Assembly: GCA_963662545.2 (NCBI GenBank)
Contig: CAXXLL010000003.1
Location: forward strand, 1,152,001-1,216,000
Direction: 5' to 3'
Length of the DNA stretch: 64,000 nt
Source of the DNA: Gammaproteobacteria bacterium
Lineage (GTDB): Bacteria > Pseudomonadota > Gammaproteobacteria > Ga0077536
Part shown: positions 31,551 through 63,813 of the stretch, in pieces
Layout: each line of letters starts with the position of its first letter
Position numbering within the stretch: the first letter of the stretch is position 1
The notes under the pieces: model-generated
Seen by the model: the letters and a program-made list of their open reading frames with translations, nothing else
Told to the model about the DNA's origin: nothing
Database searches by the model: none
Translations under genes and position numbers: made by a program

Positions 31551-34444
31551 TCAAAGTTTGCCGAATTGCAACCCCACCTGCTCGAATTCTGCCTGGCTTG
31601 CAGGGTTGCTGATCACGCCCAGACAACCGGTGCCGGGATCGAGATACTCCGTCGCCACCCGCTCCAAAGCTTCGTGCGAGACCGCAAGCACCTGGTCCCG
31701 AAACGCCGCGCGAAATACATCATCGCGGCCATACAGCGCGTTGAAAAACGCCCGTTCGGCCTCTCCGGACGGCGAGCGCGGTTGGTCGAGTGCACGAATT
31801 GTTCCGAGGATGGATTCTTCGAGACGCCGCGGATCGCGATCACCAACAAACCAGTCGAGCGCGGCATCGAAATCGGAAAGCGTTGCGAGCGCGCGTGGAT
31901 CACGGTAAGAGAAGAATCGAAACACGCAGGCGTCGGGATCGAATCCAGCACCGGAACCATAGGCACCGCCCTTTTCCCGGATCTCGCCGTGCAGGAAGCC
32001 ATCCTGCAGATAGCGGCCAAGCACTGCCAGAGCAGGTACGTCGGGAGAATTTTCCGCCGGCCCCGGGTAGGCCTTTGCACAAAAATTGATCAGGGAACTC
32101 GTCGACCATCCGTTCCTGACTTCGAACGGCACGATCTTGGGCAGGAAATCTCCGGACGTGCCGGCGCGCGTCGGCATCGTCGCTTCACACAGCGCCGTGG
32201 CATCGGCAAGCGCCTGATCTTCGCCGATAAGGAGAATTCTTCTGGGCGCCGCCAGGAATTTCGCGCGCATCGATTCAAACAACGGAAACAGAGAGGTAAA
32301 TTCGGCGTCGGTGACTTTAAGGTCCGCCAGATATTGCACGTAGCGAATCGCGCCGGGCCCGTCCCACAAATCGTCGAGTGCGGCACCGACACTCAGCGTT
32401 CTCGCCGCCGCACAGATCGCGAGATGATGGCCGTGGTCGGTGATCGACTGCTCCGCTTCGGCCCTCGATTGCGCAATGAGTTCGCGCAATCGATCGTGTT
32501 CATCAAAGCGCGCACCGTGCAATAGGTCCAAGGTTTCGTCGATGATGTCGTCGCGTTTGCGGGCAAGGCCCTTGCCTGCGATGATCAGCCACCCAAGCAT
32601 GCTGTCTTTGTTGTCGATACGCGCCCGCGCAAGGGCGTGTGTCCCGTAACTTCCGGTCAGGGCGCGCCGCGACTGCACCGCCATGTAGTCTTCGTCCCCG
32701 TGACCCAACTCTGTCAGGTATTCGCACAGCAGCGGCAGCGCTCTCAATTCGTCCGGCGATAAGTCCGGCAGGTCAAATGCGACCTGAATACGGAAAATGC
32801 CATAGCGCACTCGTATTCGAATGTATCGAATCCCCGTGCCTGCGCTGTTTTCGCCACCGGTGCCGGCACGGGCGACGGTACGTCGCCAAGCGTAACCTTC
32901 GGCAGGATCGCTGGATCGTCTTCTTGGGCCTGCCTCGACCGCAATTCCTCGGATTGCGCGACGACCCGTTCGACGTCCACGGCGTTCATACCACGCTTCA
33001 GGTCTTTGAGACGACGGCGTTCGGCGGTGGCGTCCGCCGCAGCTTTGTTTTCGTCGGGACACATCACCACGCGCACACGATGCATGTTGTCGATAAGATT
33101 TTTACGCACCAAACGCGAAACGAAATCCGGATCTTCGATGTTCTTGCGCAGGCGTTCGAGCGCCGGGGCGACATCGAGCAGGGGCTCGGGATCGCTGCGG
33201 TACAGGGCTGCAGGCAGTACCCTTCCCATGAGCTGCAAGCCAAAAGGATAACTCCCGCTGCCTATGTCGCGCTGCGCCAGTTCAAGTCGATCGACGACGG
33301 CCGTGAGCTCCGCCGCTCCCGAGCGCTTGGAGCCGACCTGATTCAGAATGTCGAAAAGGCCCGCTTCGAAAGCCTCAGCATGGACCGCCTCGCTGCCTTC
33401 CACGCCGCAGATAAATACCAGCTGGCAGGCCGAATCATCGACCCCGCAAAGTTCCGACGGCGCGTTCGCAAGCTCGGTTATCTCGAGATAGTGCCGCAGT
33501 GGCGACGCACTGTGCTCGAGCAGCAGTGACGAAAGAAATTGGGCGTTGACGAAATCCTCGACGTCGGCGGTATCGCCGATCACCCAGGCCCACACGATAT
33601 GCGTATTACGTGGTTCGAGTTCGTCAACGTCATACGTCACAACCAACTCCCGCGGTGCATCAAACGGTGCCTGCGGCGCGCTCACGATGACCTCCTCAGT
33701 CACTTCGAATCGATCGAGTACGAGTTCCGTGAACCGCTGCTGGTGTTCGGCTTCAGGGAAACTTCCGTAAGTCATAAACACCGCGTTGCCCGGATGGTAA
33801 TGCTTCTTGTGGAATGCCCGCAGTTCATCGTAGCTAAGATTCGGTATCGCCATCGGATCGCCACCGCTATTGTGCCGATAAACGACGTCAGGAAACAAAG
33901 TGCAGTGCGTGTGTTGCCAGAGCTGCGCCACGGGTGAACTCATCGCGCCCTTCATCTCGTTGTAGACCACACCGTGGTATTCGAGCCGCGGCTCGTCGTC
34001 ATCCGGGCTGTCGCTGAGTTCCAGCCGCCATCCCTCCTGAGCGAAATCCAAGGGATCGAGTCGCGGGAAAAACACCGCGTCGAGATAGACCGACAACAGA
34101 TTGTCGAAATCCTTGCGATTCTGGGTAGCGAACGGGTAAGCGGTACTGTCGCCGCTAGTGAAGGCATTCATGAAGGTATTCAGCGAACGACGGAGCATCA
34201 TGAAGAAGGGGTCTCTTACCGGATAACGTTCGCTGCCGCACAAGGTCGTATGCTCGAGAATGTGCGCTACGCCCGTTGAATCCTGGGGCAAGGTTGGGAA
34301 CGCCACCATAAAGGCATTATGTGAATCGGCGCTGTCGAGATGATAATGCCGGGCGCCCGTACCCTGATGCTGGTAACGACGAAGCTCGAGACCCAGCGAA
34401 GCTACGCTTGTCGAAGACAATAATTCGAAACCGGTGTTAGCCAT
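31551..34444 (-). pseudogene. M16C presequence-protease-like peptidase (PreP/Cym1), frameshifted near 32803
   Basis: HILEHTTLCGS, MNAFT, VVYNEMKG in one frame; IREKGGAYG, FFSYRDP in the next. Confidence 0.85.
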
Positions 34445-34501
34445 TAATCTTGTTTTCCTGGGTTTTTGCCGGCACGATATTTTCGCGCGAATGCCAGCTT
34501 G

Positions 34502-34663
34502 GGAATCTCTGGATAAGTTATGGTGCGCGTGAATGGTGCATGAAATCGTGCAGATCTAGGCACGAATCGCAGGCCATAGCGGGGACTATGGGCAAGATTC
34601 GTAACGTAAGGCTCCGCGATTTCAGGCGCAATGCCGGTGTGCCATAACTTATTCAGAGGTTCC
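34502..34663. mobile_element. Family A element copy A5, 162 bp
   Basis: GGAATCTCTGGATAAGTTATGG / CCATAACTTATTCAGAGGTTCC; flanks CTTG/CTAG. Confidence 0.88.
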
Positions 34664-34778
34664 CTAGAGTACGGCCAGGATATGATTTTAGCGGAGGAAC
34701 ACCCACACTACGACAGGCCATGAGATACGGAACATCGATCGAAATCGAACCGTACACGAAACTGAGGAGGAATCGTTA

Positions 34779-35261
34779 ATGCCATCTTTCGATGTCGTAT
34801 CCGAAGTCGATAAACACGAACTGACCAACGCGATAGACCAGACGAATCGTGAGGTTACCAATCGGTTCGATTTTAAAGGGACGAACGCACGGGTAGAACG
34901 CAACGACAACGTGTTAACTATCATTGCCGTCGCCGAGTTCCAGATTAAGCAAATCGTCGATATCCTGCAGGTCAAAATGACCAAGCGCGGAATCGACATC
35001 GATTGCCTTGATTTTCAGGAGGTCACCGAATCCAATAATGAGACACGTCAAAACGTAAACGTGCGGGAGGGCATAGAAAAGGACATCGCCAGAAAAATGA
35101 TAAAACTGATCAAGGACAGCAAAATCAAGGTTCAGGCTCAAATTCAACAAATTCAGCTTCGGGTATCAGGCAAGAAGCGAGACGATCTGCAAAACGTCAT
35201 CGCCGAATTAAAGGCCGCAAAATTAGGATTGCCGCTGCAGTACGTCAATTTTCGGGATTGA
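34779..35261 (+). CDS. yajQ: YajQ family nucleotide-binding protein
   Basis: MPSFDVVSEVD, RFDFKG, RVSGKKRDDLQ, NFRD. Confidence 0.97.
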   Translation: MPSFDVVSEVDKHELTNAIDQTNREVTNRFDFKGTNARVERNDNVLTIIAVAEFQIKQIVDILQVKMTKRGIDIDCLDFQEVTESNNETRQNVNVREGIEKDIARKMIKLIKDSKIKVQAQIQQIQLRVSGKKRDDLQNVIAELKAAKLGLPLQYVNFRD

Positions 35262-35308
35262 AAGCGACCGCCGCCCATGCGAAAAGGGGTAGAGAACGCG
35301 AATAAACC

Positions 35309-35497
35309 ATGGCCATTCAGACCGAAGAATTCCTGGATTGCCCGTACTGCGGAGAACGCGTCAGCATCCTAGTTGACCATTCCGTCCCTTCACAAACCAC
35401 CATCGAAGACTGTGAAGTCTGCTGCCAGCCAATCGATATCATATGCGCCGTCGACGGCGGACGGGCCTGCTTGTCGGTGTCACGCGCTGATGATTGA
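35309..35497 (+). CDS. CPXCG motif cysteine-rich protein
   Basis: CPYCGE, EDCEVCCQPI. Confidence 0.88.
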   Translation: MAIQTEEFLDCPYCGERVSILVDHSVPSQTTIEDCEVCCQPIDIICAVDGGRACLSVSRADD

Positions 35498-35543
35498 ATT
35501 GTTTCCCCCTGGTCGAGGCGTGTGCCCTAGCCAGGATAGTTAA

Positions 35544-35705
35544 GCAACCTCTGAATAAGTCATGGCACCTCTGCCCTGCCCATGAAATCGCGGAGCCTTA
35601 CGTTACGAACCTTAGCCCTAATCCCCGCTATGGCCGACGAATCGTGCCTTGACCTGCACCATTACATGAACCATTCAGACGCACCATGACTTATTCAGAG
35701 GTTCC
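35544..35705. mobile_element. Family A element copy A6, 162 bp
   Basis: Same IRs; flanks TTAA/CTAA. Confidence 0.88.
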
Positions 35706-35714
35706 CTAAGGCGC

Positions 35715-36056
35715 GTGTCGGGCGGAATGTGGCTTTTGATCGGATCCGGCGCCGCCATTGCTGCCTGGATTTGGATAAGCCGGGCGCGCGAACGGGTGGA
35801 TTTGATCAGCCGCGAAGTGTGTTCGGATTTACATCTGCAGCGCCTCGACGAATCGGTCGCTTTACGTCGAGTTTCTCTGCAAAGGGCCGAACACGGCATC
35901 CAGGTGCGGCGAGTATTTAGTTTCGAATTCAGCACCGACGGCGCGGACCGGCGCCGCGGCGACGTGTGCCTGTTGGGAATGGCAGCGATCCCGGCCTGGG
36001 TACGAATCGATCACCCGGACGGCATGATCTTTATCGATCTCGAAAATCCCAGATGA
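35715..36056 (+). CDS. DUF3301-like protein
   Basis: N-terminal TM, LQRLDESV, FEFSTDGADRRRG. Confidence 0.8.
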   Translation: MSGGMWLLIGSGAAIAAWIWISRARERVDLISREVCSDLHLQRLDESVALRRVSLQRAEHGIQVRRVFSFEFSTDGADRRRGDVCLLGMAAIPAWVRIDHPDGMIFIDLENPR

Positions 36057-36064
36057 ACAGATAT

Positions 36065-36095
36065 TTAGAGAACTTCTGAATAAGTCATGGCGCCT
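36065..36095. repeat. Solo end of a family A element
   Basis: TTAG-AGAACTTCTGAATAAGTCATGGCGCCT. Confidence 0.7.
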
Positions 36096-36145
36096 TTGCG
36101 ACAAAGGTATTGGTATTAATGCATGGACACCATTGACTTCGAGCT

Positions 36146-38839
36146 TTACTGATCCTCGTCCCGCTGCCTTAGTTTGGCCGCCAGCTCGTTGACCAGATCG
36201 TGGTCATGCGCTTTCGCCGCATCTCGGGCCGCATGCGCGCGCTTCCTAATGCGCTCGATATGCGCCTTTTGATTGGCCAGGATCCCGCGTTGAGCGTCGC
36301 TGTTTTCGATCTCGCTCTGTTCCTTTAACCAATCGTCCAGTTCGCCTCGAAGATCTTCACGAACTTGCTGCTGACGGACCTTGTGAACCGCGAGATCCCC
36401 GATGGATGCAACGGACGCGGCCTGCGCGTCTGCACGGGTGCGTTCCACCTTAGCAACGTGATCCGCCGCCTGGCGAGCCTGATCCTCGAGCGCGTTGAGA
36501 TCCGTATCAACTTTGGTTGAATCCCCTATCTGCGAGGCTTTCAATACCTCGATTTCCTGCTCAATCTGCTTTTGCGCATCGAGCGCAACGTGGTTCTCTC
36601 GCTGCGCGAGTTCGAGCGCGAGGCGTAAGCGTTTGGATTCCGCCTGTAAGCGTTCCCGCTCGACCCGCATATCCGTTTCTTCCTGCAAACGTTTTCGCGC
36701 ATGCGCATCCTTGAATTCGGCGACGATTTTCTGCGCCTCATCGGCGGCCGCAACGCGCGCGGCTTCCGCAGCGTCGCGCTCATGGCGCGCGCGCTCGAGT
36801 TCGGTTGCGTTACGCGTCAGTTCTTCTTCGAGCTTTTGCCGTTCGAATCGCACGTTCTGCTTCAATTCTTTTTGCAATCTGCGTTCGAGCGCGAGCTGCT
36901 GCTCTTCACGCATCTCAGCCTCGCGGGCACTCGCCAACTCAACTTCCTGCAGCCGCTCCTGATAATCGCGCGCCTGCGCGAGGCGCACACGTGATTCCTC
37001 GGCCTGCGTTTCGACGCGCATTTGTTCTTCCCGCAAACGGACTTCAGCCTCCGCCTTCTGGATTTTGAGCCGCTCGAGTTCTTCGGCCTGCCAGGCGTAG
37101 CTCTCCTTGAGTTTGCGCTCTTCGTCCTTGAGCCTTCTTTCCATTTCGGCCTGTACGCGCGCGACCTTTTCGCGCTGCGCTTCACGTTCCCTGCGAACCG
37201 ACTCTTCGGCCCGCGCCTTCTCCTGCACGATTTCAGCCTTCAACCGCTTTGCCTCCTGCAGTTCCCGTCGCGCTGTTTCGGCGTCGGCTTCGAGGCGTTT
37301 CTTCTCTTCCTGCAGCCTTTCGTCGGCCTTGCGCTCGGCCGCAATCCGCGCCGTTTCGATTTCTGCGGCAATCCGCTCGCGTTCAGCTTCGATCTGTTGC
37401 GCAGCCTTGGCTTCGGCTTCCGCACGAGCCTCATCGACGGCTGCACGCGCCGCTGCCGCACGCACCTTCTCTGCCTCGGCGAAATCAACCTCCCGGCGTT
37501 CTTTTTCTTCTGCTTTTCTGTTGGCTTCGATCTCGGTCTCTGCCGCCGCAGGCCTCCCCGTATCGTTCCCGTCGCTCCGGTCCGCGTCCGTGCGGGCGGT
37601 AGCGTCGGCGATCCGCACTTCATTGATACCCAGTTCGACCTCAAGCGCTGCCGCCTCGACGGATGCATCGCCCTTTCGTTCGGAATCGCTCAAATGTGAA
37701 GTCGGGATTGGCGCCGTGGTCGACCGGATTTCGCCTACGAAATCGGCATCGTCGTGGAGGGTCATATCGAGATCGTCGCTGCGGACGAGATCCGTGTATT
37801 GCGCCAGGCCGCCGTTCAGGCAATGGACGTCGAAACCGCGTTCGGCCAGCAGAAAAGCAGCGACGGCACTGCGTATTCCGTCGTTGCAATACACGATGTA
37901 AGAACGGTCTGACTCGAGCTTGCCGGAATGCATGCGCAGAGTATTCAGTGGATAATTGACACTCCTATCAAGGCCGTCGGCCTCGTGTTCTTCTGGAAAC
38001 CGAACGTCCAGCCACAACGCGTTCCGTACGGCCACGATGTTCCGGCCTTCCTCCAAGGTGACCCCGTTCAAGAGCGGTCTCTGGATGAGTTCGACGAAAC
38101 CCTCTTTCGGGAGTCTGACGAGCTGCCCGTCGGTCAGCATGCGCACTGAAGCATTTCGCGTCGAACCGGCGACCAGTGCTTCCTCACCGAAGGCGTCTCC
38201 GGGCCCGAACAAGGCGAGGCGATACCCAGGCGCGTTTGCTCCGGAGGAGCGGGTGACCTCGCAACGGCCCTGCGTAATGACATAGTAATAATCGCCCGGC
38301 TCGCCCTGATTGACGATGACTTCACCCTGCTTGGCCTCGACCGTCTCGAGCAGGCTGAAAATCCTGTGAATATTGGACGCGGGCAGATGCGAGAAGAGCT
38401 TTGATTGCAGCATTCGCGTCATCCAATCGCCGTCGTTTTCCGTGTCGATCTCGCTGACCTGGACGTCACAGTAATTGTCTGAGCGGTCCGCGGCGGCGAG
38501 TTTATCGAGCAGGTCCCGGTTCAGCCTCAAAACCGCCACCTCAGATTGCGCGCGTGCCGACATTTTGCGCGGCTGCAGTTGCGCCAGGGCATGTACCGCG
38601 TCAGGGGCACCGCCGATCAGGCGATGTATCGTTTCACCATCGCAAATGAGTTCGAGCTGTCCCTCGAGGAGATAGAAACAATAGGGGTCGCGCTCTCCCT
38701 GTTTAAATACGAACTCTTCCGGTTGATACCGCAAGATCTCCGCTCTAGTCAGTATCTGTGCCTTGCTCGGTGCCGAAAGTTCTCCCAGCGGCACCAGGCT
38801 GTGGACCAGGCCTTCAAAATTTGATTCCAGCGCCGACAT
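36146..38839 (-). CDS. cNMP-cNMP-rhodanese protein with long coiled coil (paralogue 1)
   Basis: VFKQGERD..CFYLLEG; QGEPGDYYYVI..FGEEAL....RNAS; WLDVR..YCNDGIRS; E/A/R-rich C-terminal half. Confidence 0.88.
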   Translation of the reverse strand: MSALESNFEGLVHSLVPLGELSAPSKAQILTRAEILRYQPEEFVFKQGERDPYCFYLLEGQLELICDGETIHRLIGGAPDAVHALAQLQPRKMSARAQSEVAVLRLNRDLLDKLAAADRSDNYCDVQVSEIDTENDGDWMTRMLQSKLFSHLPASNIHRIFSLLETVEAKQGEVIVNQGEPGDYYYVITQGRCEVTRSSGANAPGYRLALFGPGDAFGEEALVAGSTRNASVRMLTDGQLVRLPKEGFVELIQRPLLNGVTLEEGRNIVAVRNALWLDVRFPEEHEADGLDRSVNYPLNTLRMHSGKLESDRSYIVYCNDGIRSAVAAFLLAERGFDVHCLNGGLAQYTDLVRSDDLDMTLHDDADFVGEIRSTTAPIPTSHLSDSERKGDASVEAAALEVELGINEVRIADATARTDADRSDGNDTGRPAAAETEIEANRKAEEKERREVDFAEAEKVRAAAARAAVDEARAEAEAKAAQQIEAERERIAAEIETARIAAERKADERLQEEKKRLEADAETARRELQEAKRLKAEIVQEKARAEESVRREREAQREKVARVQAEMERRLKDEERKLKESYAWQAEELERLKIQKAEAEVRLREEQMRVETQAEESRVRLAQARDYQERLQEVELASAREAEMREEQQLALERRLQKELKQNVRFERQKLEEELTRNATELERARHERDAAEAARVAAADEAQKIVAEFKDAHARKRLQEETDMRVERERLQAESKRLRLALELAQRENHVALDAQKQIEQEIEVLKASQIGDSTKVDTDLNALEDQARQAADHVAKVERTRADAQAASVASIGDLAVHKVRQQQVREDLRGELDDWLKEQSEIENSDAQRGILANQKAHIERIRKRAHAARDAAKAHDHDLVNELAAKLRQRDEDQ

Positions 38840-38966
38840 CGTTCCTCTACATGAGGGTTGGGCGAGTTCGCATTATGGACCTTATATAATCGGCCGAACT
38901 CGATTGAGCATTAATCAGCTGGAAATATTAGACCAAATAGACTCGAGATCATGATGCAATACGGTT

Positions 38967-38988
38967 AACTGTGAATGGCATCACGAGG
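38967..38988. promoter_or_regulatory. CRP/Vfr-like site 1
   Basis: TGTGA-ATGGCA-TCACG, 9/10 to the TGTGA-N6-TCACA core. Confidence 0.6.
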
Positions 38989-39008
38989 AAAACCGGCGAA
39001 AGCTTGAA

Positions 39009-39030
39009 AAGTGTGAAGCACTTCACCCTC
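39009..39030. promoter_or_regulatory. CRP/Vfr-like site 2
   Basis: TGTGA-AGCACT-TCACC, 9/10; 42 bp from site 1. Confidence 0.6.
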
Positions 39031-39059
39031 GTCGAGCCTTAAACAGGCGGAATTGCTAG

Positions 39060-39217
39060 AACCCATCTCAAAATTATTCGCGCCCACGCTGGTGGCCGTT
39101 GCCGTACGGTTCAAGGCGCGAGGAGCGTGGCAAAGCATAAGCTAAATGAGTGACGAGCAACGCCGAAATGCGCGAAAATCGCTCCCGGCGCACACGCGGA
39201 TAATTTTGAGATAGATT
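39060..39217. mobile_element. Family C palindromic element, 158 bp
   Basis: IR AACCCATCTCAAAATTATTCGCG / CGCGGATAATTTTGAGATAGATT; CTAG on both sides. Confidence 0.8.
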
Positions 39218-39390
39218 CTAGTTATTTGGCGTGATTCGACGGCACTCGATCCGGCTGCCCGCACGCTCTCGACGATGCCTCGACAGGTGCGTTGGGCGGT
39301 CACGAGCGCAGGCCGCCGCGCCGCGGGCGCGCATGATCCGAAACAGCGTAGAATAGCGCCGTGAGCGTGCCCCCAGGAACCTGAGTTATC

Positions 39391-39597
39391 GTGGCCTATA
39401 CGGAAGAAAAATCCATACAACGCCGTATCTTGGAGCTACAGACGGAACACCGGGATCTGGATAAAGTCGTCAAAAAACTTTCCGATTCATCCGACGTCGA
39501 TCAACTCATGCTTCGCCGTTTGAAGAAGCGCAAATTGCAACTCAAGGATCAGATCACGAGACTCAAAAGCAAGCTTATTCCTGACCTGGACGCTTGA
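39391..39597 (+). CDS. YdcH/DUF465 family protein
   Basis: EHRDLD, RLKKRKLQLKDQI, PDLDA. Confidence 0.9.
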   Translation: MAYTEEKSIQRRILELQTEHRDLDKVVKKLSDSSDVDQLMLRRLKKRKLQLKDQITRLKSKLIPDLDA

Positions 39598-39637
39598 ACC
39601 TGCTGATAAGAACCAAGTATCGATCTGCGACGCGAAA

Positions 39638-42097
39638 ATGTCGGAAGAAGAAACCCTAGAAGCCCGTGTGGGCTTTCTCGTACCACTCAACAAGCTGCCC
39701 CCAGAGCGGCAGTCCAAGCTGCTCGAACAATCTGAAGTACTGAAGCTCAAGAAAAAGCAGACCCTATTCAAGCAGGGCGACCGCGACGATTACACGTTCT
39801 ATGTACTCGAGGGAGACATGGAGATGTACGCCGACGACTCGCTGATCAAGGCTGTCAGCGGAGGGGACGGCGCGTCGTTTCAACCGCTGGCGCAACTTCA
39901 GCCGCGACAGATGACCGCGATAGCGAAAACCAAGGCCCAAGTGTTGCGCGTCAACCGGGCGTTGTTGGAGCAGCTGCTCAGCATGGACGTAACCCCGCCT
40001 GCCGACGAACCGGACTCCGGTGTGGAAGTCGAGGAGATGGAGGTCGAGGGTTCGGGTGACTGGCTCATGACGATGCTGCAATCGGAACTCTTTTCACGGA
40101 TTCCCGCGTCCAACATCCAGAACCTGCTGGACACGCTCGAGACGGTCGAGGCCAAGCAGGGTGAAGTCGTCGTCAAACAAGGCGAACCGGGCGACTACTA
40201 TTACGCGCTCCAGAGCGGGTCCTGTGAGGTTGTGCGGGCGGGTAGGAACAAGAAGGAAGTGCGTCTTGCCGAGCTGACCGCCGGCGATACCTTCGGGGAA
40301 GAAGCGCTCATTTCGGGCGGCAAGCGAAACGCGACCGTGCGCATGACATCCGATGGTAATCTCGCCAGGCTGACCAAGGACGACTTCACGAAACTGATCA
40401 AAGCACCGTTGCTGAGCACCGTCACCCGGGAGGAGGCCGACAAGCTCGCGGCCGACGGCGCACTGTGGCTCGACGTGCGGTTCGAGGACGAACACGATCA
40501 CAACGGCCTGCCTAAGAGCCTTAACATTCCCTTGAGCAGTTTGCGCACGCGCATGGACGAACTCATTATTGACCTGCGCTACATCGCATATTGTGACAGC
40601 GGCGGCCGCAGCTCCGCCGCGGCTTTTTTACTCGCGGAGAAAGGATACAACGTCGTCCACGTCGAAGGTGGAGCGGTCGACGAGCCGAAACCGGAAGCAC
40701 CGGCAGCGGTCCCTGATGCGGAAGCACCGGCCAAAAAGGCACCCGCCAAGAAGAAGGCGGCAGCGAAAAAGCCCGCAAAAGAAGCGTCGGCGCAGAAATC
40801 AGCCGCCGCAAAAACCCCGGCGGCGAAGCCAAGCCCGGAAAAAGTTGCGAGCGAAGCGGCGCTTGAGGCCGATGCCCGCGCCTCATCGCTGTCGGCGGAG
40901 GTAGAAAAAGCGGCGATCACGATCGAGCAGGCACGAACGCTGATGGCCGAAGCGGAAGCGATGAAAGCCGAAGTGGAAAAATTCGTTGCCGACCGGCTAG
41001 CGTCGGAGAAACAGAAGATCGAAGAGGAGGCGGAGGTGCTGCAGAACACCCTGGCAGCCGAAAAGCTCAAGATATTGCAAGAAGCTGAGGAACTCCAGCA
41101 AACGCTCGCGTCAGAAAAGGAAAAGATCGAAAAGGAAGCCGCGGCGGTCAAGCTGAAGATGGTCGAGGCCGAGCGGCTCAAGGACGAACTCGCCGAGCAA
41201 CTGAAATCGGCCGAGATCGAAGCTGAAAAACGCCATCAGGAAGTCGAAACGCAGCTAGAGGAGATGGAGAAAACCGCCGAGGAACGCTTCGCTGCCGAGG
41301 AGAAGCGTCTCGAGGCCCTGTATGCCAAACAGGCCGAACTACTCGAAACCACGCAGGCCGACCGCGAGGCTGAATTGCGCGCACAGCTTCAGGAAGAGCT
41401 GGCTCAGGAACGGCGGAATTTCGAAGCGGAATTCGCGCGCACAGCCGAAGAACTGGAAAAGGTGCGTGAAGAACGCGAGGCGGCCTTGGCGGCACAGAAG
41501 GCAGCCGCCGAGGAAGCCCGCAGCATGATTGAGGAATTCAAGGCGCAGCAGGAAGAATTGCTCGCGGAGCAGTACGCGGCAATCAAGACCGAGCGCGAGA
41601 AGCTGCAGTCCGAAGCGGCCCGTATCTCAAAACTACAGGAGGAAACAGCAAAGGCCCGATACGAGGCAGAGGCCGCCAAAGTGGCCACCGAGCGAGAACT
41701 CGAAAAAGCGCGGGCCGAACAGGCGGCCGAAACGAGCCCCGAAGTCGACACCACGATCATCGAGATCGAGGAACGCGCGGTGGCGGCTGATCTGGAACTG
41801 GAACAGGCGATCGAGGCCGAATCGGTGGTCGCCACAGCTGCCAAGGGAAATGAAGATGAACTCGAACGGACTTACGATACCGCCAATGAAATCAACATAT
41901 TGTTAAAAAAGGAATTGACCGACTGGGTGGACGATCAGGACCAGTTTCAGGAATCTACCCTCCAGCGCGAAGTCCTGTCGAGGCAAAAAGAAATGGTGGA
42001 GCGGATCAAGGCGCGAGCGGCAGCCGCGCAAGCCGAATCCATCAATCACGACAAATCCCTACTCGAGGAAATCGAGGCAAAGCTCAGCGGAGAGTGA
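39638..42097 (+). CDS. cNMP-cNMP-rhodanese protein with Lys/Ala linker and long coiled coil (paralogue 2)
   Basis: LFKQGDRD, LAQLQPR, FGEEAL....RNAT, WLDVR, YCDSGGRS. Confidence 0.88.
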   Translation: MSEEETLEARVGFLVPLNKLPPERQSKLLEQSEVLKLKKKQTLFKQGDRDDYTFYVLEGDMEMYADDSLIKAVSGGDGASFQPLAQLQPRQMTAIAKTKAQVLRVNRALLEQLLSMDVTPPADEPDSGVEVEEMEVEGSGDWLMTMLQSELFSRIPASNIQNLLDTLETVEAKQGEVVVKQGEPGDYYYALQSGSCEVVRAGRNKKEVRLAELTAGDTFGEEALISGGKRNATVRMTSDGNLARLTKDDFTKLIKAPLLSTVTREEADKLAADGALWLDVRFEDEHDHNGLPKSLNIPLSSLRTRMDELIIDLRYIAYCDSGGRSSAAAFLLAEKGYNVVHVEGGAVDEPKPEAPAAVPDAEAPAKKAPAKKKAAAKKPAKEASAQKSAAAKTPAAKPSPEKVASEAALEADARASSLSAEVEKAAITIEQARTLMAEAEAMKAEVEKFVADRLASEKQKIEEEAEVLQNTLAAEKLKILQEAEELQQTLASEKEKIEKEAAAVKLKMVEAERLKDELAEQLKSAEIEAEKRHQEVETQLEEMEKTAEERFAAEEKRLEALYAKQAELLETTQADREAELRAQLQEELAQERRNFEAEFARTAEELEKVREEREAALAAQKAAAEEARSMIEEFKAQQEELLAEQYAAIKTEREKLQSEAARISKLQEETAKARYEAEAAKVATERELEKARAEQAAETSPEVDTTIIEIEERAVAADLELEQAIEAESVVATAAKGNEDELERTYDTANEINILLKKELTDWVDDQDQFQESTLQREVLSRQKEMVERIKARAAAAQAESINHDKSLLEEIEAKLSGE

Positions 42098-42147
42098 AGA
42101 CTCTCCTCTTCGAGCAGCCGAAATTTTTAAGCTCGTTTAAATGCGGG

Positions 42148-42615
42148 CTAGGCGACGGCGTAGTCGGCGGCATCCGGCGCAAGCTGGTGTGAAAAGAACT
42201 CGTTGACGATTCGCTCTGTCTGTAAGTCGATCTTAACGAAACGCAGACCGACGACGCAGCGTGGTTCCGTATTGACGGTGGTCAGGTAGAGCATCTGGCA
42301 TCGCACCGCCAGCGTCCGAATCCCGTCTCCCACCGGCAGAGCTAAGGCCACGTTGGCAAACGGGCTATTATCGGCCTCGATTTTTCCACCGTTCGGGTGC
42401 AATAGGCGCGCCGTTTCTACGGTGCAACGAATCTGTAATCCGTCGGGTGAAATATTGATGACGTTTGCTGAAATCTTCTCGCCGCCATCCGTCCTGAGTG
42501 CAACCTTGATGTCCAGGGGAATTCGGGGGTAGCGCCGCGACTCGTCGAGTTTTTCGACGAGCTGCCATACCAGATCGTTGCCGCTAGCTGGCACTTCTAC
42601 GCTTGGCTTAGCCAT
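42148..42615 (-). CDS. PilZ-domain protein
   Basis: RRYPR (RxxxR), NISPDG (D/NxSxxG), VGLRF. Confidence 0.85.
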   Translation of the reverse strand: MAKPSVEVPASGNDLVWQLVEKLDESRRYPRIPLDIKVALRTDGGEKISANVINISPDGLQIRCTVETARLLHPNGGKIEADNSPFANVALALPVGDGIRTLAVRCQMLYLTTVNTEPRCVVGLRFVKIDLQTERIVNEFFSHQLAPDAADYAVA

Positions 42616-42741
42616 GATTTAGTCCTCGCAAATGAAATAGCTGTTAGCCCGAAAAGTACACAAGGACGGCGCGAAGCGCAGGACTTTCGTCACATTTGTT
42701 GCGGCCTCATAGGCTGTGATGATGAATTTATTTGACGTCCG

Positions 42742-43629
42742 TCACAGCCTGGAGCGTTTAACATTTGTTTTATTTTTGGGACGGGCTTTCCACTGTTTCG
42801 TGCGATCTCGCAAATTCTCCAAACGAATCGCACTTTCGGTGACCTGGCTTTCCGTCATGCGCGATTTGACCAGTTCCGAATTTGATATCGCGATTTTTAG
42901 GCCGCCTTCGACGGCGAGAATGAACCAGGCCCATGCTTCCACCAGATCGAGGGGGACACCTTCCGCGTTCATGTACGCCGCGCCCAACGCGTTCTGCGCG
43001 ACCGGCAGGCCTCGCTCCGCCGCGTACCTCCACCATTTGAGACTCTGTGGGATATCCATGGATACACCTTGGCCGCGACGATGCAGGATACCGAGGTTGT
43101 ATGCCGAGTGAAGCTCGCCGCGCTCCACGCCGCTCAGCCACCACTCGCGGGCTTTTTCGAAATCCCTGGGAACCCCTTGCCCGCGATAATGGATCAGGCC
43201 TAATGCGTGAGCAGAGCGGCCGTCGCCCTGTCGCGCGGCCCGCGTTAACCAGGTGCGCGCCCGATCAACATCCTGTTGGGTACCACGCCCATGCAAATAC
43301 AGCAGACCCAAGTTGTGCTGCGCCTTCGCATGGCCCTGCTCGGCTGCGCGTTTGTACCATACTACCGCGCGTTCAAGCTTGGCGATAACGCCCCACCCTT
43401 TTTGATACGCGAGACCGGTATAGAATTGCGAGTTCGGATGACCAGCGGCGGCTGGCTCCTGGAATTCAGCGAAAGCATTACCGTGATCCCCGGCCTTGAA
43501 TGCCGCCAGTCCGGACTCGAAATCGGCTAGGGCAGAGGGCGACAATAATCCCGTAATCACTGCGAGTAGCAGCGCTCCCGCCGCCCTTGAGACAGTATTA
43601 CGGGTGGATTGAATCAAGCGCCCGCCCAT
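42742..43629 (-). CDS. Secreted Sel1-repeat protein
   Basis: Signal peptide, repeats like AAEQGHAKAQHNLG..Y..G.G. Confidence 0.9.
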   Translation of the reverse strand: MGGRLIQSTRNTVSRAAGALLLAVITGLLSPSALADFESGLAAFKAGDHGNAFAEFQEPAAAGHPNSQFYTGLAYQKGWGVIAKLERAVVWYKRAAEQGHAKAQHNLGLLYLHGRGTQQDVDRARTWLTRAARQGDGRSAHALGLIHYRGQGVPRDFEKAREWWLSGVERGELHSAYNLGILHRRGQGVSMDIPQSLKWWRYAAERGLPVAQNALGAAYMNAEGVPLDLVEAWAWFILAVEGGLKIAISNSELVKSRMTESQVTESAIRLENLRDRTKQWKARPKNKTNVKRSRL

Positions 43630-43668
43630 GTTTTACAATGACCGCGATTTTTAACATACGGGAATGAC

Positions 43669-44526
43669 ATGTCCGACCAGCGATTTACCGGTACCGATAC
43701 ATACATCGTAACTGACGACCTCATGATGGCGGTCAACGCCGCTGTCACACTGCAGCGCCCACTGCTCGTCAAGGGCGAACCCGGCACTGGGAAAACCATG
43801 CTTGCTCTCGAGGTCGCGAAGGCTCTCGAACGGCCGCTGATCGAATGGCATATCAAATCGACCATGAAAGCTGCGCAGGGTTTATATGAATACGACGCCG
43901 TAGCCCGGCTGCGTGATTCGCAGCTCGGCGAGGAAGCGGTCCACGATATTTCAAATTACATCGTCAAGGGCAAGCTTTGGGAAGCGTTCGAATCCAATAC
44001 TAAACCGGTGCTCCTGATTGACGAAATCGACAAGGCCGACATCGAATTTCCCAACGATCTGTTGCTGGAACTCGACCGGATGGAGTTTTTTGTCTATGAA
44101 ACCAAAAAAACCGTCAAGGCCACGCACCGTCCAATCATCATCATTACCAGCAACAATGAAAAGGAATTACCGGACGCTTTCCTGAGGCGCTGCTTTTTCC
44201 ACTACATCGCCTTCCCGGATCACGAGACGATGGACGCAATCGTCAAAGTGCATTACCCCGACATCAAGAAGCGTCTTCTGGCGGAAGCCCTCGAGTGCTT
44301 TTTCGAGTTACGCGAAATTCCCGGCTTGAAAAAGAAGCCATCGACCTCCGAGCTGCTCGATTGGATCAAGCTCCTGGTCGCGGAAGATATTCCGCCGGAA
44401 GCCCTGCGCGAAAAAGATTCCCGTAAGGCCATTCCGAAGCTGTACGGCGCCCTGCTTAAGAACGAGCAGGATATGCACCTATTCGAGCGGCTGGTCTTCA
44501 TGTCGAGACGCACCGGTGCTAATTGA
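43669..44526 (+). CDS. MoxR-family AAA+ ATPase
   Basis: GEPGTGKT, LLIDEIDK, LPDAFLRRC. Confidence 0.93.
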   Translation: MSDQRFTGTDTYIVTDDLMMAVNAAVTLQRPLLVKGEPGTGKTMLALEVAKALERPLIEWHIKSTMKAAQGLYEYDAVARLRDSQLGEEAVHDISNYIVKGKLWEAFESNTKPVLLIDEIDKADIEFPNDLLLELDRMEFFVYETKKTVKATHRPIIIITSNNEKELPDAFLRRCFFHYIAFPDHETMDAIVKVHYPDIKKRLLAEALECFFELREIPGLKKKPSTSELLDWIKLLVAEDIPPEALREKDSRKAIPKLYGALLKNEQDMHLFERLVFMSRRTGAN

Positions 44527-57610: not shown

Positions 57611-59254
57611 ATGAACAACCGTCACCTTATCGCCGGGTTTTTGATAGGGCTGTGCTGTACCGAGGCGCTCGCAGTCCAGCTCGGACAGCTTTCGAGCTAT
57701 TCACGGCTGGGCGAGCCGCTCATCGCACGCATCGACTTATACGGCGCGCAAACCGACAAACTCGCTCTATCCAGTTTCGAATTGCGACCCGAGATCGGCA
57801 CTCGCAACGATAGCGCCGAGCAGCGCGCCCTCAGCACGATATCACCGTCGCTGGCGCAAGACCGGCGCGGGCAGCCTTATCTCAAGCTGACCTCGACCGT
57901 GCCGGTAAACGAACCCATTGTTTCCTTCCGCGTACGCTTGCAAACGGGCACGACGACCAGCGTACGTCACTATACCCTCGCGCTCGACCCCGCCGTTTAC
58001 CGCTCAAAGCCTGTCCCGCCGATCGCTGAAGAGCGGGGCGTCGCGCCGATGACGAATGCGTCCGCTAGCCAATACGGCCCCGTGCGATCCGGTCAGTCCT
58101 TGTGGCGCATCATGCGCGAAACCGGATTGGCTAGAAGCGATACGGGTGCGACCATCGAGCGCATCGTCGCGGATAACCCTCATGCATTCGTCGCCGGTGA
58201 CGCGAATCGCATGCGGGTCGGCGTAATGCTCGTCTTGCCGCAACACGATTCTGCGGCCACCACGCGCCCTGCAACCATGTCGGTCGACGCCATTGCCGAG
58301 GAAATTGCGCCGGCTTCGGCCACCGCGATCCGGTCGCCGGCCGCCTTGAGTATGCCTTCGGCACAGTCGGCAGATCGCGGCGCAGGCATCGCAGCGGCGT
58401 CCCGTGCTACGGCCCCCGACATCAGCAGGGCAGCACGCCTGGCAGCGCTGGAGGTGAAATTCGCGGCGATTCGTAAACGCTACGCCTCGCAGCAGCCCAC
58501 CGCCTCACCGTCAACCGAATCCGCGGTGGCTGCAGTCGTTCTCGCCATGCCGGCCTCGGCGGCGACTGACGACGATATCGCCGTCGTTAAACCGCAAGAA
58601 ACCAGTGCGGAGACACCCGCCGCCATGGCACCGCGCACCACTGAGCAGGCTGCGGCCGATCTCGGTGGGTCGTTCCTGGACGATGGCTCGTTCGGCAAGC
58701 TCGCTTTGACCGTACTCGGTCTTGTACTCTTGGTTAGCTTGATCGCGAAAGCGTCGCTCGCCGGCATGGCCTACCTGCGTCGGCGAGGCTTGCAGCAGAC
58801 CGAACTAACTGCGGATGAAGATCTCAAGGCCGAGATCGGACTCAAGGCTGAGAAGCGCTTGCAACTCGAGGACGAAGTGAAACGCCGGATCGCAGAAAAG
58901 CGTGAGCCGGAACCCGCTGAAAGCGGCGATGCGAAAGCGCGTGCGGGCGAAGTCGTGTCCATCGAAGAGATCGAATCGAGGATCGCACACGGATATTATT
59001 CGGAAGCGGAACGGCTTTTGTTAGACGTGATCGGACGTACGCCCGGCAACCATCGCGCGAAACTCCTCCTCGTCGAGGTCTACTATCTCAACGAGCGCGT
59101 CGAGGATTTCGTCAGAATCACCGAGGAGATTCAACTATTACATCGCTCCGACATCGGCGATGACCACTGGCAACGCATCATGCGCATGGGCAAGGTTCTC
59201 GCGCCGGAGCGTGCCCTGTTCAGCGGTCCGACGGCGATTGATAGAGAGGCCTGA
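57611..59254 (+). CDS. Short FimV-like protein
   Basis: LGQLSSYSRLGEPL, YGPVRSGQSLWRI..NPHAF, TM, IAHGYYSEA..KLLLVEVY TPR. Confidence 0.78.
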   Translation: MNNRHLIAGFLIGLCCTEALAVQLGQLSSYSRLGEPLIARIDLYGAQTDKLALSSFELRPEIGTRNDSAEQRALSTISPSLAQDRRGQPYLKLTSTVPVNEPIVSFRVRLQTGTTTSVRHYTLALDPAVYRSKPVPPIAEERGVAPMTNASASQYGPVRSGQSLWRIMRETGLARSDTGATIERIVADNPHAFVAGDANRMRVGVMLVLPQHDSAATTRPATMSVDAIAEEIAPASATAIRSPAALSMPSAQSADRGAGIAAASRATAPDISRAARLAALEVKFAAIRKRYASQQPTASPSTESAVAAVVLAMPASAATDDDIAVVKPQETSAETPAAMAPRTTEQAAADLGGSFLDDGSFGKLALTVLGLVLLVSLIAKASLAGMAYLRRRGLQQTELTADEDLKAEIGLKAEKRLQLEDEVKRRIAEKREPEPAESGDAKARAGEVVSIEEIESRIAHGYYSEAERLLLDVIGRTPGNHRAKLLLVEVYYLNERVEDFVRITEEIQLLHRSDIGDDHWQRIMRMGKVLAPERALFSGPTAIDREA

Positions 59255-63147: not shown

Positions 63148-63813
63148 TCAGTCTGTCTTGAGGACACGGTCGACGGGTTTTGGCCGGACGCCGAGTACGA
63201 CGATGTTCTTACCGGTTGCCGCGACGTGCTTTTGTTCTTCCATGTCCTTTAGCACTTTACCGACCATCTCCCGGGAACATCCCACCAGCCGCGCAAGCTC
63301 CTGGCGCGTTACGCGAATCTGCATACCGTCGGGATGCGTCATTGCGTCCGGCTGATCACACAGCTCAAGCATGGTGCGCGCGACCCGACCATAGACGTCC
63401 ATAAAAGCGAGGTCGCCCAGCTTACGGTTCGTGTTGCGAAGCCGGCGCGCGAGTTGTGAGGTCATGGCGATGATCAGATCGGGGTAAATTTCGGTTAGTC
63501 CTTTCAGTTTTTTGTATCCGATCTGCGCGATTTCACATTCTCCACGGGCGCGTACCAGGGCCGTGCGGCTTGCGTCTTCGTTGAACAGCCCGATTTCTCC
63601 GAAGAAATCGCCGGGGTTAAGGTACGCCAGCACGATCTCGTGGCCCTTGTCGTCCTCGAGCAGCACCGTCACTGACCCGCGAGTGATGTAATACAGCTCG
63701 CCCGCAGGATCGCCTTGCCGGATGATCGCGGCTTTGGACGGGAATACCCGTCGATGGCAATGCATCAATAGTTTATCGATCGATTGGTCGAGGGTGGACG
63801 TCAACGAAGACAT
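63148..63813 (-). CDS. crp: cAMP receptor protein (Crp/Vfr)
   Basis: FFGEIGLF, RTALVRA, LAFMDVYGRVA, THPDGMQI, VGCSREMVG. Confidence 0.93.
   Translation of the reverse strand: MSSLTSTLDQSIDKLLMHCHRRVFPSKAAIIRQGDPAGELYYITRGSVTVLLEDDKGHEIVLAYLNPGDFFGEIGLFNEDASRTALVRARGECEIAQIGYKKLKGLTEIYPDLIIAMTSQLARRLRNTNRKLGDLAFMDVYGRVARTMLELCDQPDAMTHPDGMQIRVTRQELARLVGCSREMVGKVLKDMEEQKHVAATGKNIVVLGVRPKPVDRVLKTD

Follow-up and report, generated by a model that had tools for sequence, protein, structure and literature searches.

We describe two divergently transcribed genes, here called P1 and P2, in a 64,000-nucleotide stretch of DNA (the window; contig positions 1152001-1216000 of Gammaproteobacteria bacterium assembly GCA_963662545.2, a genome of 5.58 Mb that is 96.85% complete). 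Each encodes a head of two tandem cyclic-nucleotide-binding (cNMP) domains and a rhodanese domain, followed by a long helical rod and a C-terminal tail. This module is real, conserved and previously uncharacterised, and it is a candidate for a new form of non-transcriptional cyclic AMP (cAMP) receptor. An earlier note on this DNA had described a divergent paralogue pair, and the two open reading frames (ORFs) bear this out, the heads being 49% identical across 344 amino acids (aa; E 3e-106) and rod plus tail 32% identical across 416 aa (E 2e-22). The genes concerned are as follows.

36146..38839, minus strand: P1, 897 aa; non-canonical cNMP domain A, canonical cNMP domain B, rhodanese, linker, helical rod, C-terminal tail helix
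39638..42097, plus strand: P2, 819 aa; same architecture as P1
39391..39597, plus strand: DUF465 gene, 68 aa; immediately 5' of P2, divergent from P1, the gene with the CRP boxes described below

The DUF465 gene, also pointed out in the earlier note, ends 40 nucleotides (nt) ahead of P2. An origin as artefacts or chance ORFs was rejected: orthologues occur in many genomes, and the pair is also covered by short-read contigs from two runs, each piece having 2 differences or fewer. Four short contigs from an RNA run match DUF465/P2 exactly and another run gave one piece each on P1 and the neighbouring PilZ gene, but contigs cannot show transcription and these were not used as evidence. In a literature search covering mostly openly accessible papers we found no study of the full cNMP-cNMP-rhodanese-rod-tail architecture, in line with the earlier note, and nothing relevant on DUF465.

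Tandem cNMP domains and rhodanese in the head

Pfam recognises two cNMP_binding stretches and one Rhodanese domain in each protein, with whole-protein scores that exceed the cut-off and per-domain scores of 43.8-78.7 bits. Every motif that the earlier note had quoted is present, including the rhodanese Cys of both proteins.

38489..38731, minus strand: P1 cNMP domain A; 43.8 bits, no FGE motif, conserved AQLQPR
38078..38341, minus strand: P1 cNMP domain B; 72.5 bits, cassette FGEEAL...RNA, Glu-to-Arg spacing 9
37793..38026, minus strand: P1 rhodanese; loop CNDGIRS
39743..39982, plus strand: P2 cNMP domain A; 46 bits, non-canonical
40145..40402, plus strand: P2 cNMP domain B; 78.7 bits, canonical cassette; Z 18.0, root-mean-square deviation (rmsd) 2.7, 119 aligned to 3pna
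40427..40672, plus strand: P2 rhodanese; loop CDSGGRS; Z 15.7, rmsd 2.0, 97 aligned to 3icr

Residue conservation was counted in an alignment of 149 rows. The domain B cassette, which the earlier note called canonical, is kept in 143-149 of them (F 149, G 149, E 148, R 143, A 143), with Asn directly after the Arg in 142; its Glu-to-Arg spacing of 9 in P1 is that of the regulatory subunit of protein kinase A (PKA-R). The first domain had been described as degenerate. It is non-canonical and has no FGE, but it has not decayed: it keeps a motif of its own (Q 140, L 144, Q 141, P 148, R 146), and because this motif is strongly conserved we regard domain A as repurposed. The QLQPRQ motif of domain A and the tail are new markers by which the family can be defined.

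Modelled with AlphaFold from 149 sequences (mean pLDDT 87, pTM 0.49), P2 shows three compact domains within its first 350 residues, and its best fold matches are the tandem cNMP domains of PKA-R and PKG. On the basis of cassette and fold, the heads are very likely to bind a cyclic nucleotide. The earlier suggestion of cAMP gating gains indirect support from the canonical domain B cassette, the PKA-R-like fold and a conserved CRP box that the note had missed. No transmembrane (TM) helix was found, as had been reported (maximum 19-residue hydropathy 1.17 in P1 and 0.72 in P2). HTH_Crp has no Pfam match in either protein, and P2 scores 44.6 bits on NF008732 against a cut-off of 266.

The rhodanese loop takes the form CD[TS]GxRS, with the Cys present in 143 of the 149 rows and the DVR motif invariant or nearly so, and its closest counterparts of solved structure are PspE and the rhodaneses of CoA-disulfide/persulfide reductases. 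These features, along with the wide occurrence of the head as a stand-alone protein of about 350 aa (Atlas clusters at score 0.97-0.98), would suit a cAMP-gated sulfurtransferase or persulfide sensor, in which cAMP uncovers the Cys and the rod positions it near a distant substrate or membrane enzyme, giving a metabolic or redox role without a link to pilus or pole. Such a role is unlikely. Asp directly follows the Cys in 136 rows, which is unusual for thiosulfate sulfurtransferases, and the Cys loop is gone, as judged by eye, from paralogues of about 620 aa that form a class of their own and retain both head and coil. No sulfur-relay gene was found at the locus or among the 39 gene neighbours of other family members scanned with NCBIfam (of 119 listed), all of which were unrelated housekeeping genes.

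A conserved CRP box upstream of P1

Two boxes, each with one mismatch to the CRP consensus TGTGA-N6-TCACA, lie 146 and 188 nt upstream of P1.

38970..38985: proximal CRP box; 1 mismatch, centre at about -61 from the inferred transcription start
39012..39027: distal CRP box; four helical turns (42 nt) 5' of the proximal box
38924..38930, minus strand: -10-like AT-rich block of the P1 promoter, 40-46 nt 3' of the proximal CRP box

A CRP box within 300 nt was found for 24 of 24 P1-type genes versus 1 of 36 short head-only paralogues; across the source genome, 27 of 4213 genes have one. Among neighbour genes the box precedes none of 30 DUF3301 rows and none of 29 yajQ rows (rows include duplicates). 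Taken by itself, the 64-kb window gives no significant excess of CRP-like boxes, since its total of three is reached in 12 of 100 shuffles; the case rests on conservation. In the 24 P1-type rows an AT-rich block (AT 0.79-1.0) follows the box by 41-46 nt, and a strict -10-like hexamer is found there in 12 rows versus 0-5 in other windows. This spacing suggests that the box is centred near -61, the class I CRP position; a generic sigma-70 scan gave 2 sites versus 1.9 by chance. From this pattern of conservation we predict with high confidence that P1 is under CRP control.

The source genome encodes two true CRPs (333 and 313 bits against the NCBIfam cut-off of 266), one class I cyclase and 22 matches to class III cyclases. 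The second CRP (313 bits) is itself in the window, at 63148-63813 on the minus strand, and is syntenic in several relatives, 10-27 kb from the pair; in its recognition helix a Lys replaces the Arg of the first CRP. Of the relatives in family f1, 18 of 19 with CRP have long forms versus 0 of 5 that lack CRP. In a class sample of 161 genomes, CRP was found in 70, among them the unpublished G063; of the 8 genomes that carry the tail, 6 have it.

This complement of cyclases and CRPs might also be expected if the proteins were a cyclic-nucleotide sink or feedback regulator, induced by CRP to buffer cAMP (or cGMP or another nucleotide) or to dock on a cyclase or CRP, and so shape the signal. By analogy with PKA-R, the head could be an inhibitory subunit released by its ligand, and the cassette Arg is followed by Asn, where cAMP sites have Ala/Ser and cGMP sites have Thr. 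Buffering, however, would not call for a 60-nm rod that ends in a conserved helix, and no cyclase adjoins the pair in the loci examined, so that this explanation appears quite improbable.

A helical rod ending in a family-specific tail

36470..37522, minus strand: P1 E/A/R-rich helical rod, about aa 440-790; boundaries approximate, from sequence
36161..36472, minus strand: P1 C-terminal tail motif; 111.8 bits with the tail profile, which contains the P1 row itself
40691..40816, plus strand: P2 disordered Pro/Ala/Lys linker, aa 352-393, pLDDT < 50
40835..41782, plus strand: P2 helical rod, aa 400-715; fixed-length blocks, indels limited to a few hinges
41786..42091, plus strand: P2 C-terminal tail motif, ELxxWxxEQ...RI...LLxEI; predicted long helix

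A coiled coil of about 450-500 aa had been proposed for both proteins. Both have a long helical rod, but its helical part is nearer 420 aa in P2 and 450 aa in P1. Helices span residues 400-817 of the P2 model, and the tail modelled alone is a single long helix. Neither rod nor tail has a Pfam or PDB match; for the tail the PDB sequence search went up to E 1, and Atlas gave no match either. Several blocks of the rod are of fixed length (37 aa in 139/147 rows, 36 in 144/147, 26 in 142/148, 46 in 145/148 and 19 in 147/147). One hinge most often measures 29, 78 or 85, with differences of 49 and 56 aa, both multiples of 7; the remaining hinges vary less regularly. Fixed blocks and a hinge with heptad-multiple indels suit a coiled coil kept in register, and the P1 and P2 rods are likely to form coiled-coil dimers.

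A tail profile searched over 1.84 billion representatives gave 132 hits. Among the 61 of at least 600 aa, 60 carry the cNMP-cNMP-rhodanese head and end, or nearly end, in the tail; the other 71 are shorter and fragment-like, 10 of them with a partial head. The tail is family-specific. It occurs in 8 genomes of the class sample (one, G164, unpublished), with two copies in 6.

The head is a portable module, found alone, with the coil of the 620-aa class, with giant coils, and with a coil plus an FGE-sulfatase-like domain. The last type accounts for 3 of 15 proteins scanned (L112:4281-9917, L118:7974-11495 and L133:7923-11804); besides the long coil and the FGE-sulfatase-like domain these have a TM-like stretch, seen by eye, which suggests envelope-spanning versions. 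Short head-only proteins form a separate clade with four longer fusions (support 98, 48 rows). Loci L162-L177 hold further paralogue classes of 500-2000 aa with coils of their own, most of whose rhodanese loops lack the Cys, and relative G004 has six head-bearing genes. Two-domain forms (cNMP-A plus cNMP-B, 255-270 aa), similar in size to CbpA, occur at L178:3951-4718 (minus strand) and L179:3698-4510 (plus strand), although the latter may be frameshifted from a downstream rhodanese-like ORF.

Pairing of P1 and P2

A tree built on the head and the distal 230 aa (43 rows) separates P1 from P2 as two old clades of 15 rows each, with support of 99/95 for P1 and 100/98 for P2. The two subtrees are broadly mirrored in their branching, and deeper joins are without resolution. 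The divergent P1 / DUF465-P2 layout is found on one contig in 8 of 24 family relatives (the P2 of G009 is frameshifted near its start), in incomplete or fragmentary form in G011, G014 and G017, and in named metagenome-assembled genomes including Gammaproteobacteria bacterium Ga0077536, some of which are the same assemblies as the numbered relatives. In three other families (G034, G082 and G122) both genes instead stand in tandem 3' of the CRP box and divergent from DUF465, so that the position of DUF465 divergent from the boxed gene is kept in four families. The cultured Methylohalomonas lacus HMT 1 has a tandem pair of 782 and 736 aa with a CRP box before the second gene. Pairing and tail are thus conserved in relatives.

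The pair is not always complete. P1, DUF465 and PilZ are kept in G004, G007 and G024 (all 99% complete), in which P2 was not found at the locus or among head matches. P2 is also absent at the locus of G003 (62% complete), G010 (88% complete) has P2 without P1 at the locus, and G038 has two sister copies rather than P1 plus P2. Total lengths vary independently (P1 870-1339 aa, P2 744-961 aa; rho -0.26, n=15), and the distal rods of both proteins are net acidic, without charge complementarity. Given the genomes with a single gene, an obligate heterodimer was rejected, and the heterodimeric filament suggested in the earlier note is weakened to that extent by the three near-complete genomes and the uncorrelated lengths. 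A cAMP-regulated, intermediate-filament-like heteropolymer in which P1 and P2 obligately pair and polymerise via their tails, which could account for the two copies in 6 of 8 tail-bearing genomes, the tandem pairs behind the box in three other families, the mirrored subtrees and the fixed length of the distal rod in both proteins, is therefore very improbable in view of these solitary genes, the sister copies of G038, the independent lengths and the like charge of the rods.

A proposed cAMP-induced scaffold

Our preferred reading, which we hold tentatively, is that P1 and P2 are a cAMP-induced, cAMP-binding coiled-coil scaffold that works like CbpA of Pseudomonas aeruginosa, its head held by the tail helix, probably at the pole or the pilus machinery. 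Both would be cytoplasmic, non-transcriptional cAMP effectors built as a head on a rod. In a first step, for which the conserved box is strong sequence evidence, cAMP-CRP would activate P1 from a class I promoter. The box precedes a tandem of both genes in several other families. cAMP would then bind domain B and switch the head, as motif and fold suggest, while domain A with its conserved non-canonical QLQPRQ loop would serve as a docking or allosteric surface and not as a cAMP site. Inducing the protein and also switching it, cAMP would drive a feed-forward loop. In a third step the 400-450-aa helices would form coiled-coil dimers, about 60 nm long when fully stretched. These would be homodimers in genomes that have P1 without P2, and elsewhere perhaps P1/P2 heterodimers via the in-register distal 230 aa. 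In the fourth and most tentative step, the conserved tail helix would anchor or bundle the rods in one place, the pole or the type IV pilus machinery being the likeliest, and head and rhodanese Cys would act there under high cAMP.

A polar or pilus role is possible, and the scaffold probably serves surface appendages. The source genome has 67 CRP boxes, of which 40 regions were inspected and 121 of their 173 ORFs scanned. The boxed surface and cyclic di-GMP (c-di-GMP) loci are fimU-pilV, cpaB, a two-partner secretion passenger, a DUF6701 protein, a GGDEF-EAL protein and a second PilZ protein. In 12 family genomes the fimU-pilV box has at most 1 mismatch in 6 and 2 mismatches in 3, is missing in 2 and was untestable in 1. 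Vfr directly activates the fimU operon in P. aeruginosa (PMC8787478).

It would be a bolder step, and is improbable as a whole, to combine a PKA-R-like switch with a mechanical or thiol output, the CRP-induced P1/P2 rod assembling on cAMP, via its tails, into a polar scaffold or filament of about 60 nm that presents the rhodanese Cys to the type IV pilus machinery. If true, the rod would join cAMP, persulfide and, via its PilZ neighbour, c-di-GMP inputs in bacteria that often lack a chemosensory pathway.

Several observations weigh against the scaffold reading. Among the boxed loci examined, surface or c-di-GMP genes number only about 6, and most neighbours are unrelated. PilB is above the cut-off in 18 of 22 long-form genomes but also in 13 of 19 others, which makes pili compatible with the module but neither predictive of it nor enriched. 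The hydrophobic periodicity of the rods is weak (3.58-3.62), and they may instead be single alpha-helix tethers. P2 in the source family has no CRP box of its own. The 5 relatives without CRP are small genomes (1.7-3.2 Mb), a confound in a comparison of kin that are not independent, and co-loss may reflect streamlining; CRP was also not found in 2 of the 8 tail-bearing genomes, G082 (82% complete, with the box still there) and the unpublished G164. Finally, homology to CbpA itself could not be demonstrated.

A link to chemoreceptor arrays or flagella is not required, since among the 22 long-form genomes, some of them incomplete, 9 gave no CheW and 7 no FliG. In the source genome FliG and a type IVa PilB are present and a CheW domain was not found; FliG without CheW is also seen in G010, G012, G015, G022 and G027.

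Neighbouring genes and other features of the genome

42148..42615, minus strand: PilZ-domain gene, convergent with P2; RRYPR and NISPDG motifs
35715..36056, plus strand: DUF3301 gene, convergent with P1

The PilZ gene is a possible accessory member of the module. It has a CRP box with 1 mismatch at 42731-42746; of 21 rows, duplicates among them, 2 have a box with at most 1 mismatch and 9 a box with at most 2. The second PilZ protein (L059:3715-4179, minus strand) is 55% identical to that of the window and has a perfect CRP box in front. Four clustered boxes lie at L048 (C2:1041692-1041864) between ORFs without a Pfam or NCBIfam match, and two perfect ones at L056 (C2:1965371-1965450) before another unknown ORF. 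The DUF3301 gene is a syntenic neighbour in distant families too but, lacking the box in all 30 rows, shows no sign of co-regulation. A third, head-only paralogue of 357 aa, 41-42% identical to the heads of the pair, lies on a different contig (C2) between amtB and aroE (gene names assigned by eye from translations).

Dispersed intergenic repeats lie at 34500-34670, 35540-35710 and 39080-39220 (158, 202 and 42 blastn hits in the genome), one of them between P1 and DUF465; an Rfam search of 34000-44000 gave no match, for the repeats or otherwise, and a plasmid comparison gave none either. An M16/PreP-like peptidase (31551-34444, minus strand) is split here into frames of 566 and 503 aa, while in relatives a single ORF of about 960 aa encodes it. 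Short-read contigs of two runs have a small insertion near 32802, which makes faulty assembly the probable cause of the split. A protein with a FimV N-terminal domain (57611-59254, plus strand) belongs to the syntenic block of the second CRP and is conserved there at all 6 family loci that were checked. The source genome also encodes subunit B of a copper membrane monooxygenase (Monooxygenase_B, 424 bits; L081:2298-3524, minus strand).

Comparison with known systems

The long charged helical rod with a conserved end segment recalls the bacterial coiled-coil scaffolds crescentin, FilP/Scy, PopZ and DivIVA, none of which, to our knowledge, has a cNMP-rhodanese head. Uncharacterised short cNMP-cNMP-rhodanese proteins of Gammaproteobacteria (about 350 aa) have the same head but neither rod nor tail. 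The rhodanese domain shares fold, DVR motif and CxxGxR loop with PspE, GlpE, CoADR-RHD (to which it aligns at Z 15.7) and persulfide reductases; it differs in being fused behind cNMP domains and in the Asp after the Cys, and P1 and P2 are far below the NCBIfam cut-offs for PspE and GlpE.

PKA-R and PKG give the top sequence and fold matches of the head, domain B with its canonical cassette reaching Z 18.0 to PKA RIa (3pna). Identity to PKA-R is about 20%, however, and domain A has no FGE, leaving one canonical cassette versus two in PKA-R. The whole tandem superposes with an rmsd of about 10, indicating a different domain orientation, and the P1/P2 locus has no kinase but adds a C-terminal rhodanese and rod.

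The system that P1 and P2 most resemble in layout is CbpA, which Endoh and Engel reportedly described in 2009 as having a degenerate N-terminal and a functional C-terminal cAMP domain, a PKA-R-like character and a Vfr site in its promoter. The P1/P2 heads share this tandem of degenerate and canonical domains, and the CRP/Vfr site has its predicted counterpart in the box of 24 of 24 P1-type genes, though not before P2 of the source family. CbpA is said to be an unpaired protein of about 270 aa with two cNMP domains only, whereas P1 and P2 add rhodanese, rod and tail, and their hosts often lack CheW or FliG. Of the searches for CbpA homology, a saturated profile search gave 2 hits and a single-protein search 56, none a named Pseudomonas protein. 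CbpA (PA4704) of P. aeruginosa is a non-transcriptional, polar cAMP receptor (PMC7247823, PMC3019171, PMC3419228), and reviews describe CRP as the only or main cAMP effector in most bacteria and CbpA as an exception without a known phenotype (PMC11139211, PMC7247823, PMC3419228). Beside this exception the P1/P2 family stands as a conserved candidate effector that does not act on DNA, with a built-in output (rhodanese Cys, tethered tail) and a clear regulatory signature. With the cultured carrier M. lacus HMT 1 and the soluble 350-aa heads, the role of non-transcriptional cAMP receptors becomes directly testable.

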